Positions 23,825-26,054 of a stretch of DNA of 64,000 bases are shown in pieces. Positions within the stretch are counted from its first letter, which is position 1. Every line of letters begins with the position of its first letter. Where the stretch lies: assembly GCF_048403405.1 (NCBI RefSeq), contig NZ_CP183129.1; one strand, given 5' to 3'. Both the position numbers and the translations under genes were made by a program. The stretch is from Escherichia coli. GTDB lineage: Bacteria; Pseudomonadota; Gammaproteobacteria; Enterobacterales; Enterobacteriaceae. The notes beneath the pieces were generated by a model that saw only the letters and a list, made by a program, of their open reading frames with translations, was not told where the DNA came from and made no database searches.

Positions 23825-24049
23825 ACTGTTCACCACTGTTCACCCTGTCATAAATATCTTTTATATCAGTATATTATAGGGTTAACAGTTATTTATGAAC
23901 TGTTCACCAAACTATTCACTGTTCACCTTTTTGATTGTTTATTGAGCTTCAAGGGTGAACAGTGGTGAACAGTTGGTGAATAGTTTTTGTGAAACTGTTC
24001 ACCCCTTAACCTTATGAATTAAAAGATAAAATATCAAAAGGTGAACAGG
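23825..24049. repeat. replication-origin iterons: ACTGTTCACC decamers in both orientations around AT-rich spacers
   Basis: Direct copies at 23825, 23835, 23899, 23918 and 23994. Inverted copies (GGTGAACAGT) at 23954, 23964 and 24040 (9/10 match). Degenerate copies at 23911 and 23975. Confidence 0.75.
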
Positions 24050-24196
24050 TGAAGGGTTAAAACGCAAAAATTTTAATTTACTGCTGTGAGATAAAGACTA
24101 TGACAGTAAAGCACACAAAAACACGCGCTTGATTTGACCGAATACTGGTTAAAAATGACTACAAATTAGATAAATTAGATAAAATAGGAAGAAATA

Positions 24197-24457
24197 ATGC
24201 CGATTCTGACGCATGAAATAAACAATTATTTTGATCAATTCGGACTTCATGATATTGCTTCAATGCCTACCACTCAGTACCGTCAGGCCCTTGCAAATGG
24301 TGGTTTACTGTGGATTGATCATCATGATTTTATTCGTAGCACGCTATCAGATGAAATCCTTGCAACAAATCAAGAGCAGGTTAATGTTTTGATTGAGCAT
24401 TTGCAGGTTTTAAGGAAAAAAATGCCACTACCTCCTAATTGGATGAGTGAGAAATGA
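24197..24457 (+). CDS. hypothetical protein (86 aa)
   Basis: AGGAAG SD before the ATG. AT-rich, no recognisable motif. Ends at the shared hairpin terminator. Confidence 0.5.
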   Translation: MPILTHEINNYFDQFGLHDIASMPTTQYRQALANGGLLWIDHHDFIRSTLSDEILATNQEQVNVLIEHLQVLRKKMPLPPNWMSEK

Positions 24458-24460
24458 ATT

Positions 24461-24489
24461 ATATGGCCTGGCTCTTTGCCAGGCCATAT
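24461..24489. terminator. bidirectional hairpin terminator between convergent genes
   Basis: ATATGGCCTGG ctctttg CCAGGCCATAT (11-bp stem) between the stops at 24457 (+) and 24492 (-). Confidence 0.7.
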
Positions 24490-24491
24490 AC

Positions 24492-25001
24492 TCAAAGCAT
24501 TGTTAACAAGGCGGACGCACCAGCACCAACGAGACTGGCTACCGTACTATTATTTAGTAAATCCTTAAGCAAATTTTTTGCCTGAGGATCTTGTGATTGA
24601 GAAACTTTTTCAACAAGTTCAGTTATGCTGAGATTTACAATAAGATTGTTATGCTCACCGAGTTGAACCTGTGTACCGGATATGTTACCAATGTTAAATG
24701 TATTTTGGCTAGATTGTTTTGGTTTATGTTCATTAGCAGTCAGATTCTCGACTTTTAATGTAAGCATGTGAGGGTGATTAGTACCAACATTGAGTGTACC
24801 TCCTGGTAAAAATGACATATCAATTACTTTTAATATTATTTCCCCCTTCCCTAGTTTTTGAGTGATTTCATCTCCAATATTAATATCTGGTTCTTCAGTA
24901 TAAGGGATTAGCACTTTTTTTTCAGCTGAGTTTCTTTTCCCCTTGTATTCAACTCCTGCGATTGTGAATTTTTCTGGATATGCCATGACGTTAAGATCCA
25001 T
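24492..25001 (-). CDS. hypothetical 169-aa protein: beta-rich N-domain, RHIM-like 'FNIGNISGTQVQLGEHNN' module, hydrophobic Gly/Ala-rich C-tail (candidate effector)
   Basis: Strong SD GAGGAG 7 nt upstream, 29 nt after the upstream gene's stop. The C-terminus is STVASLVGAGASALLTML. The motif translation was checked by hand against the DNA at about 24636-24707. Confidence 0.7.
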   Translation of the reverse strand: MDLNVMAYPEKFTIAGVEYKGKRNSAEKKVLIPYTEEPDINIGDEITQKLGKGEIILKVIDMSFLPGGTLNVGTNHPHMLTLKVENLTANEHKPKQSSQNTFNIGNISGTQVQLGEHNNLIVNLSITELVEKVSQSQDPQAKNLLKDLLNNSTVASLVGAGASALLTML

Positions 25002-25030
25002 TATGTTGCTCCTCGTGATCGCTTTTGCGT

Positions 25031-25807
25031 TTAACTAGTAGATTTGAAAGTGTATTTTGTCTGTGTGTTAAGGTTTGATATTAGAGCTTCATAGTTTTCT
25101 TTACTCAGTAAGTTTTTTGAGTAGGCCTTCTTAAGAAGGTTTTTTGAGAGAGTAATAATTTCTTTTTCACCAGTTGATGCAATTTTTGAGAAGAACTCAG
25201 AGAGCTCTTGTATATTAATATTGTTATTTGTACCAAGTTGTACGTATTGGCTATTTACAGTAGCTATGTTGAATATGTTTTGTTTTGGATGCGTTTTTTT
25301 TAGCTTTTCAATTTCAGCATGTTCTATGATTTTTTGAGAGATACTTTCAATATAACCACTAACGTCTTTTTTTTCTGGGAAGGAAAACCCATCACCTCTT
25401 AATATTTTATCTGTTTCGGCCATTTCATAGTAAAGCCTGCGAATCATCACAAGTAATAGTAATTTAGCCTCCTCGATTGACTCCTCTATTGAGAATTGAC
25501 ATTCAATTGCTAACGCGGAGGTCTGCTCTAAAACAATTTCTGAGTTATTTTCAATGTAAGGATTGATAAAACCATTCCAAAAAATTTGAACGGGAGTACC
25601 TTTAAATGCCAAACCTTGATAGCATATTTCTGTTCCATCATATGCAGTAACTTTCATGGGGGGGCCTGCATTGAAAAATCGCCATCTATGAATCAGTTTG
25701 GTTAATCTTTCGTCAATCTCCCGAACTAATTTATAAGTCCTTTTGAACAATGGGGATGGTCGCATCCCAGGAACAGCAAGAATTTCTTTTGTCACTTGAA
25801 TCTCCAT
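25031..25807 (-). CDS. hypothetical 258-aa protein carrying the same 'FNIATVNSQYVQLGTNNN' module (candidate sensor/partner)
   Basis: Long ORF in an AT-rich segment and first gene of a two-gene operon. The motif was checked by hand against the DNA at about 25211-25282. No known catalytic motifs recognised. Confidence 0.65.
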   Translation of the reverse strand: MEIQVTKEILAVPGMRPSPLFKRTYKLVREIDERLTKLIHRWRFFNAGPPMKVTAYDGTEICYQGLAFKGTPVQIFWNGFINPYIENNSEIVLEQTSALAIECQFSIEESIEEAKLLLLVMIRRLYYEMAETDKILRGDGFSFPEKKDVSGYIESISQKIIEHAEIEKLKKTHPKQNIFNIATVNSQYVQLGTNNNINIQELSEFFSKIASTGEKEIITLSKNLLKKAYSKNLLSKENYEALISNLNTQTKYTFKSTS

Positions 25808-26054
25808 AGTTTATCAGCATTTTTGTAAATTATTTGTGTGTTAACATTCAAGACTGTTCGTAACAAAAATACCTTATTTACATCAATTTTTTGATCCATA
25901 TCTTAAATAGTGGCACTCAGACGTGAGCCGCCACTGTTGCCGTCCGATCCCCTGCGCGATGCCGGGTTGATCTGCGAGATGCCGAGAGTGTCGGGCGGCG
26001 CTCCCTCCGTGTTGGTTTCACGTCCTGAATCTTAACCAATACGAGAAAACCTTC

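Follow-up and report, generated by a model that had tools for sequence, protein, structure and literature searches.

RHIM, PP and BASS3 motifs have a common signature, G-phi-Q-phi-G (Dyrka et al., bioRxiv 10.1101/2020.01.06.895854). Here we describe two adjacent genes, A and B, on the minus strand of a 64,000-nucleotide stretch of an Escherichia coli genome (contig NZ_CP183129.1 of assembly GCF_048403405.1; hereafter, the window), whose products carry a similar motif. An earlier prediction made from the nucleotide letters of the window (hereafter, the original prediction) had taken the two genes for a sensor-effector pair that signals through an amyloid motif. We found by sequence alignment that A and B both belong to one family, which is defined by a mobile C-terminal module of about 72 amino acid residues.

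The core of the motif in this module, an (I/V)-Q-(I/V/L)-G tetrad flanked by Asn and Gly, is the same as in the RHIMs of RIPK1, RIPK3, ZBP1, and TRIF, in PP, and in BASS3. The RHIMs of the RIP kinases lie between folded parts of the protein, and the motif of the module likewise lies between folded parts, in a segment predicted with low confidence. Unlike in the RHIM proteins, the motif of the module is directly followed by a conserved two-helix segment and a hydrophobic tail, and a kinase, NLR, or HeLo-type partner is lacking.

In filamentous bacteria, Bell proteins bear a bacterial amyloid signalling (BASS) motif at their C-terminus, and NB-ARC/NACHT proteins bear one at their N-terminus (Dyrka et al. 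2020, bioRxiv 10.1101/2020.01.06.895854). Up to 2026, reviews and papers on methods mention RHIM-like motifs in bacteria only for such Bell/NLR pairs of filamentous bacteria. As in the Bell/NLR pairs, genes A and B are adjacent, collinear, and close to each other, their products have a short beta-prone motif in common, and one of the partners has a putative membrane-targeting element. Unlike in those pairs, A and B are both small, the motif is internal, an NLR is absent, and the membrane element is a C-terminal tail instead of an N-terminal helix; moreover, most members of the module family are solitary genes in Gammaproteobacteria.

A precedent in E. coli is Bab/Agp (BASS11) of strain ECOR25, an amyloid-controlled abortive infection system (bioRxiv 10.1101/2024.11.07.622273). 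Bab is a helical Bell-like protein of 109 amino acids with a C-terminal motif, and Agp has the architecture TPR-GreA/B-C-PIN (bioRxiv 10.1101/2024.11.07.622273). As Bab/Agp is already known in E. coli, the concept of amyloid-controlled abortive infection is not new for enterobacteria, and the view that BASS-type systems are unreported there, which the original prediction voiced, is outdated. Bab/Agp is also a two-gene cargo of an enterobacterial mobile element (in a prophage defence hotspot), and its common motif activates a small membrane-acting executioner, as we propose below for A and B. In contrast, when the systems were compared by domains, not by motif sequences, no domain of A or B resembled those of Bab and Agp, and neither A nor B had a Pfam match to TPR, GreA/B, or PIN.

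HET-S and HELLP combine an amyloid-type switch and a membrane-inserting hydrophobic helix in one polypeptide, which can be activated by a partner with the same motif, and the module would resemble them in this respect. It differs from them in that its hydrophobic helix is C-terminal and immediately downstream of the motif, its N-terminal domain is variable, and there is no HeLo homology. As for the genomic setting, the variable region upstream of the packaging operon in phage-inducible chromosomal islands that form capsids (cf-PICIs) is "expected to encode immune systems", and integron cassettes have been shown to carry phage defence genes (10.1101/2024.07.02.601719). A and B are found at this same variable-region position, and homologues of B occur in cassettes, the class of elements that encodes phage defence. 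Literature, accession, and keyword searches retrieved no paper on the module family, and the family is not named in the searchable studies of PICI or integron defence. Judged from the sequences, the architecture of a variable N-terminal domain, the motif, two helices, and a C-terminal hydrophobic tail differs from all those described. The family also stands out in that its members are mostly single genes and travel on satellites, integron cassettes, and prophages.

A C-terminal module common to proteins A and B

A BLASTP comparison of A (25807..25031, minus strand, 258 amino acids counted from ATG) and B (25001..24492, minus strand, 169 amino acids) gave a single local alignment, A161-235 to B84-159, with E=1e-6. 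When the A family (24 clusters, aligned) and the B family (over 180 clusters, with a length of about 168 amino acids in nearly all; 80 sequences made up the conservation alignment) were aligned jointly, the similarity ran through the whole C-terminal region of about 72 residues. B is a full-length member of phrog_5789 (PHROGs, E=6e-69), a group to which PHROGs assigns no function, and A matches this group over residues 166-227 only. The A-family member P0141 ends in …NSTVASLVGAGASALLGLL, which is a B-type tail. The original prediction had regarded the two proteins as unrelated outside one block of 24 residues and a helical segment after it; this has to be replaced by a homologous domain of about 72 residues. 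The positions given for the two 24-residue peptides were right, and the identity between them is 11 of 24 instead of 12 (none of 200 shuffles reached 11).

The module begins with the motif (T/I)-F-N-I-G-x-(V/I)-S-G-x-Q-V-Q-(V/I/L)-G-x-x-N-x-x-x-x-N, in which hydrophobic and polar residues alternate, with breaks at Gly and Asn. Two helices follow (…EL(V)EK(I/V)A.S.D.EAK..LK.LL.N…), and a hydrophobic tail rich in Gly, Ala, and Ser, TVASLIGAGASALLGLL, forms the extreme C-terminus.

In B, the module is preceded by a small beta-barrel, a putative sensor (24732..25001, residues 1-90; all features of the two genes are on the minus strand). The motif of B is QNTFNIGNISGTQVQLGEHNNLIV (24636..24707, residues 99-122), the helices H1-H2 (…ELVEKV..S.DP.AK.LLK.LL.N…) correspond to 24546..24635 (residues ~123-152), and the small-residue-rich hydrophobic tail is TVASLVGAGASALLTML (24495..24545, residues 153-169). 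The AlphaFold2 (AF2) model of B has a beta-barrel at residues 1-88 with a predicted local distance difference test score (pLDDT) of about 80, a segment at 91-123 with a pLDDT below 50 that includes short strands at 111-114 and 119-122, and three helices at 126-168; a helix is predicted for the tail at 152-168. Residues I104, Q113, G115, and N118 of the motif are invariant in the 80 sequences. Among the segments of the B family, the tail is the most conserved (0.81), followed by the N-terminal domain (0.72), the motif (0.71), and the linker before the motif (0.43). The hydrophobic tail that had been noticed originally on the 169-residue protein is therefore a conserved feature, with a Kyte-Doolittle value of 1.70 over 17 residues (family mean, 1.78).

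A is composed of a helical N-terminal domain, the RHIM-like motif, and three helices, and has no hydrophobic tail. Its N-terminal helical bundle, also a putative sensor, corresponds to 25298..25780 (residues ~10-170), and the motif QNIFNIATVNSQYVQLGTNNNINI to 25211..25282 (residues 176-199). The C-terminal helices (25034..25210) correspond by homology to B's helices and tail, and the tail has degenerated into a hydrophilic end, …KNLLSKENYEALISNLNTQTKYTFKSTS. In the AF2 model, the helices at residues 21-168 have a pLDDT of about 90, residues 175-196 have a pLDDT below 50, and helices follow at 199-247. In the A family, N180, G192, and N195 of the motif are invariant, and Q190 is conserved in at least 90%. 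The family of the N-terminal domain is restricted to enterobacterial satellites; its structure matched only generic helical bundles, and a PDB search with it found no sequence relatives.

Both A and B have the tetrad in the form VQLG, followed by xxNN, and the Q, G, and N of the motif are invariant or nearly so across the two families. The motif is conserved like folded domains, yet it has a pLDDT below 50 in the monomer models of both proteins. We scanned 62 full-length family members with Pfam RHIM (PF12721), and seven matched. P0241 (29.4 bits), P0255 (25.2 bits), and P0239 (24.9 bits) exceeded the gathering score of 20 bits, and P0263, P0253, and P0233 scored 14-17 bits. These matches fall exactly on the motif of the module, and some members contain G-phi-Q-phi-G exactly (NSQGVQIGNSN and NSQGIQIGDNN). 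As the RHIM-scoring relatives were retrieved by a full-length module profile that included the helices and the tail, their motif is homologous to the motifs in the window. The RHIM resemblance claimed by the original prediction thus holds at the level of the family (24.9-29.4 bits versus 20) but not for the window proteins themselves. Pfam and NCBIfam gave nothing significant for A and B, or for the 86-amino-acid product of the neighbouring gene. PDB sequence and profile searches with the alignments of the B family, the A family, and the module, and with P0241, gave no significant relatives and no RIPK.

Solitary B genes and tail loss in paired A proteins

The module profile gave 126 matches at E<=1e-3 among 1.84 billion representative proteins. 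All of them are short (mostly 150-180 amino acids, and 276 at the maximum), the module is always at the C-terminal end, and no NLR/STAND or other large architecture with the module was found among the 126. In the 122 new representatives, the N-terminal part was a B-type barrel in 36, A-type in two, and of another type in 84, including winged-helix/DUF2513-like domains, a zinc ribbon, other small beta domains, and helical domains. Module-only proteins of about 70-100 amino acids are also in the database, many of them labelled as partial. A further word-indexed search for homologues returned mostly short fragments.

B is usually found without A. We examined B relatives in 37 loci (one genome per species); about 30 contained an intact B and no other module gene nearby, and A and B occurred together in two, from Enterobacter soli and Winslowiella. 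Among the IMG/VR contigs with B or the module, B was alone in about 44 of 59, and A+B was present in six. The paired arrangement, whose recurrence the original prediction had proposed as a check, is the exception. Relatives of B also exist outside Gammaproteobacteria, in Thermodesulfobacteriota, Campylobacterota, Kiritimatiellales, and Hyphomicrobiales (metagenome-assembled genomes). In some loci, the B gene is split into two open reading frames (ORFs) for the N-terminal domain and the C-terminal module (L042, 5986-6601, Photorhabdus temperata; also L106 and L107); these are either frameshifts or pseudogenes, or a naturally split version.

Two homologues of B are single-ORF cassettes, at 8001-8507 of L049 (Pokkaliibacter plantistimulans) and at 6001-6507 of L005 (Shewanella algae). 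They are located in arrays of small ORFs on the same strand, with spacers of 57-160 bp and attC-like ends (…ATAACAA…inverted repeat…GCGTTAT…; …CATAACAA…inverted repeat…GGCGTTATG), which were judged by inspection, and an integrase fragment is near the cassette in L049 (6896-7243). From these sequence features, we identify both as integron cassettes. In an Aeromonas-related metagenomic contig (L051, 383-4020), the B homologue is flanked by an Abi_C protein, a helix-turn-helix (HTH) regulator, VspR-like genes, and a ResIII helicase, and the neighbourhood looks like a defence island. Escherichia phage vB_EcoM-689R6 (ON470584.1; L053, 5980-6486) has a B-like gene of 168 amino acids (33% identical), which occupies a moron slot of a lambdoid prophage, with the lysis cassette (holin, Rz) on one side and HNH/terminase genes on the other. 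Solitary B therefore occurs where defence and accessory genes accumulate. Because B is solitary in most loci and also occurs as a single-gene integron cassette, it is an autonomous single-gene unit; with its own N-terminal domain, it is not merely the executioner that the original prediction had made of it.

A-type proteins that occur without B were found in L044 (5458-6207, Kluyvera ascorbata), L047 (152-877; P0141), L108 (3230-3979), L110 (4521-5270; also L121), and L111 (3711-4460; also L122). All of them have an intact hydrophobic tail, …NSTVASVIGAGASALFSLL, with Kyte-Doolittle values of 1.79-1.83. The gene that follows A in L047 and L044 is an 85-amino-acid backbone gene or the primase, and not B. 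In contrast, the tail is degraded in every case of A paired with B. The best Kyte-Doolittle value in the tail of the window A is -0.36, versus 1.8 in its solitary relatives, and the values range from -0.41 to 0.92 in the pairs of viral contigs. In the paired A of Yersinia (1.62), the tail carries a charged residue, …GIIGTDISSILSIL. This pattern suggests subfunctionalisation of A after pairing. It is compatible with a duplication or recruitment after which A lost its own membrane element and would depend on B. The sensor-to-effector relation that had been proposed also fits, in that the A-type tail is lost only in proteins paired with B.

The motifs of paired A and B also show a weak sign of varying together. 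Motif identity was 0.362 within pairs versus 0.327 between pairs (permutation p=0.002, 10 pairs), and the helices showed no excess in the same test (p=0.77). Examples are an F-to-Y change at the matching motif position of both partners and the VQLG of both window proteins. Because the tail is lost only in paired A and the motifs co-vary, heterotypic assembly through the motif is suggested.

A candidate mechanism and its alternatives

We tentatively favour the following explanation, although it falls somewhat short of being probable: each protein would couple an N-terminal sensor domain to an effector, the RHIM-like module, which attacks the membrane, and A would be a co-sensor of B. The trigger would most likely be a phage component or a phage-induced state, upon which the N-terminal domains would cluster. 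The RHIM-like motifs would then zipper into a beta-sheet oligomer, possibly of the cross-beta type, and the aligned hydrophobic tails would insert into the inner membrane and damage it, with abortive infection or growth arrest as the outcome. B would be a complete autonomous sensor-effector. With a second sensor domain and no tail of its own any more, A is probably an accessory sensor of B; it would nucleate B or co-assemble with it via the common motif. Such an action of A on B can be likened to that of RIPK1 on RIPK3 or of NWD2 on HET-S. On the evidence from sequences, the members of the module family are probably undescribed anti-phage membrane effectors, and their function is probably abortive-infection-like.

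Several observations weigh against this explanation. Neither A nor B of the window matched Pfam RHIM even at E<=1. A string similar to the motif, IINISSVNGQKGQFGQTNYS, is present in acetoacetyl-CoA reductases (PDB 3ezl_A, residues 145-178, versus positions 5-37 of the module profile, E=0.02), where it forms a strand-loop of a globular short-chain dehydrogenase/reductase (SDR). This match, the best one of the PDB searches, is a chance near-match, and as the string sits in an ordinary globular enzyme, sequence resemblance alone is no proof of amyloid. Since the motif lies inside the protein, ahead of a conserved helical region, it could belong to an ordinary folded oligomerisation domain. The tail has only 16-18 residues and is moderately hydrophobic. 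The co-variation of the motifs comes down to roughly one residue, in pairs that lack phylogenetic independence; thus, it is only suggestive. The putative defence role is based on genomic association, and PADLOC-DB 2.0 had no match for A, for B, or for their 86-amino-acid neighbour at E<=1, which, together with the Pfam and NCBIfam results, bears out the earlier statement that neither protein is recognisable as a member of a named defence family. Finally, a scan of the minus strand found no sigma-70 consensus promoter upstream of A.

Some of these points favour another explanation, in which the module is an ordinary folded domain for oligomerisation and membrane anchoring, made of a beta-hairpin, a helical bundle, and a tail anchor, and the likeness to RHIM is convergent. 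A and B would then be tail-anchored or membrane-associated paralogues that act, for example, in superinfection exclusion, without amyloid templating. A homology of about 72 residues that includes conserved helices, instead of a short isolated terminal motif, is what this explanation expects. The short strands followed by three helices in the AF2 model of B, the failure of the window proteins to match Pfam RHIM, and the similar sequence in the SDR strand-loop agree with it as well. It does not readily account for the low pLDDT of the motif in both models despite conservation at the level of a domain, for the three family members above the RHIM gathering score, or for the tail loss confined to paired A together with the co-variation within pairs. 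We therefore regard it as possible, though on the unlikely side. A stronger form of the membrane-effector explanation makes B a minimal bacterial counterpart of RHIM and HET-S proteins by analogy, with sensor, amyloid switch, and tail in one polypeptide. A would relay the signal to B by hetero-amyloid templating, as RIPK1 does to RIPK3, the relay would have arisen by duplication and tail loss, and the sensor of B, by its putative stopper-like fold, would detect assembling phage heads; satellites, integron cassettes, and prophages would have spread the system across Gammaproteobacteria and beyond. Taken as a whole, this form seems unlikely to us.

As the host satellite forms capsids and relies on phage tails, it is also conceivable that B blocks the joining of phage heads and tails. 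Its barrel would mimic a stopper or head-closure protein and bind the portal-adaptor of filled heads, and either the maturation of a helper or competitor phage would be blocked, or the binding would be the clustering trigger for the membrane module. In the Foldseek comparison of the barrel with BFVD, the similarity was weak, with one match at E<1e-3; B had no sequence match to Phage_HCP or other neck families in Pfam and PHROGs; and B is frequently an integron cassette, too, in genomes that lack a satellite context. The stopper-like fold of the B sensor domain is a lead and not a finding, and we consider this explanation quite improbable. A canonical NLR-effector pair of the BASS type or of its fungal equivalent (FASS), with one dedicated sensor and one dedicated executioner, would likewise have adjacent collinear genes whose products carry one RHIM-like motif in common, as observed here; among the family loci, however, such pairing is in the minority, and B is mostly found without A. 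An NLR/STAND partner appears nowhere in the family, and neither A nor B has a Pfam match to NACHT or NB-ARC. The motif is internal, not terminal, and in place of a Bell/HeLo-like N-terminal helix domain, B has a beta-barrel, with the hydrophobic segment at its C-terminus. The BASS-type pair of the original prediction therefore lacks the canonical architecture, and we judge this reading very improbable. There is similarly little to be said for B as a holin-like lysis protein or as a membrane effector gated by a second messenger (PilZ/Cap15-like). Neither PilZ (PF07238) nor a holin was matched in Pfam; RxxxR is missing from B, in which inspection found only DMSFLPG, an imperfect DxSxxxG in place of (D/N)xSxxG; and no cyclase was found nearby in the loci examined. 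The hydrophobic segment ends the protein, without the charged C-terminal tail typical of holins, and B occurs as solitary integron cassettes. We rejected a PilZ/Cap15-like effector for its absent motifs and the absence of a cyclase, and a holin for its topology and the cassettes.

If the motif is an RHIM-type switch, as in the membrane-effector explanation that we favour, amyloid-controlled cell death would extend to common unicellular Gammaproteobacteria and their mobile elements; in bacteria, it has so far been known from filamentous bacteria with NLR partners and one E. coli system. Capsid-forming satellites and integron cassettes would also gain a new type of cargo in their immune repertoire. 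The system is small and tractable in E. coli, being one gene of 169 amino acids and a natural two-gene variant. It could be used to ask by what means an RHIM-like motif links sensing with damage to the membrane, how the roles of sensor and executioner can part after duplication, and where the lineage of RHIM, PP, and BASS3 comes from. If the motif is just a part of a folded domain, the module still defines a new, widespread, and uncharacterised family of C-terminally anchored proteins of mobile genetic elements.

The satellite island and the signals of the two genes

The region is 99.9% identical to a locus found in 19 of 5,426 complete E. coli genomes. In E. coli 4621, the matching island is about 14 kb long and is inserted between yhdJ and fis (RefSeq annotation). 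It starts with genes for an integrase, an HTH regulator, an Icd-like protein, a DUF4222 protein, and a primase, which are followed by an 86-amino-acid gene, B, and A. The last part encodes the major capsid protein, an HK97-type protease, the portal, a head-tail connector, an HNH endonuclease, TerS, and TerL, and the annotation shows no tail genes. A capsid-forming PICI is characterised by an integrase, regulators, a primase or replication genes, its own genes from capsid to TerL, the lack of tail genes, and a length of about 12-16 kb. The island has this layout, as do islands in Yersinia and others; by its gene content, the host element is a cf-PICI-like satellite.

A and B are cargo of a variable slot upstream of the capsid operon. 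Related E. coli islands have B alone or an unrelated DUF3775 gene in the slot, and islands of Yersinia and other enterobacteria have the A+B pair at the same position. In E. coli HZ13 (NZ_CP128609.1; L055, 5742-6986), an unrelated DUF3775 protein of 414 amino acids is encoded in the equivalent slot, on the opposite strand, flanked by the small backbone gene and by the gene for the capsid of a related cf-PICI-like island; because of this replacement, the position can be regarded as a swappable cargo slot. The original prediction that the pair is cargo of a phage satellite agrees with this. We rejected a structural neck protein of the satellite, as the genes are on the opposite strand, AT-rich, variably present, and replaced by the DUF3775 gene in HZ13. 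A toxin-antitoxin pair was rejected as well, because B exists as a solitary cassette.

A re-scan of the window confirmed the two minus-strand ORFs, the 29-nt spacer between them, the GAGGAG Shine-Dalgarno sequence, the terminator, and the AT-rich block. The size of 258 amino acids for A is correct when counted from the ATG at 25807. A GTG four codons further, at 25795, is preceded by GGAG with a gap of 6 nt and is the start used in RefSeq and in nearly all homologues; A thus probably starts at this GTG and has 254 amino acids. The Shine-Dalgarno sequence of B (25009..25014, minus strand) is inside the spacer, 7 nt ahead of the ATG of B. Directly 3' of B is a terminator hairpin (24460..24490, minus strand) with a T-run, whose stem has 13 bp in our scan and not 11 bp as first described. 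The hairpin is located between the stop codon of B (24492) and that of the convergent 86-amino-acid gene (ending at 24457), and it probably ends both transcripts. This 86-amino-acid gene (24197..24457, plus strand; phrog_1957) belongs to the satellite backbone, outside the cargo, and adjoins the slot in the majority of the related islands that we examined, irrespective of the cargo. The GC content is 0.33-0.40 at 24000-26000, compared with 0.50-0.55 towards the capsid genes and 0.42-0.53 towards the primase. The pair had been described as opposite in strand to all flanking island genes; one more island gene, of the YlcI/YnfO family, is also on the minus strand.

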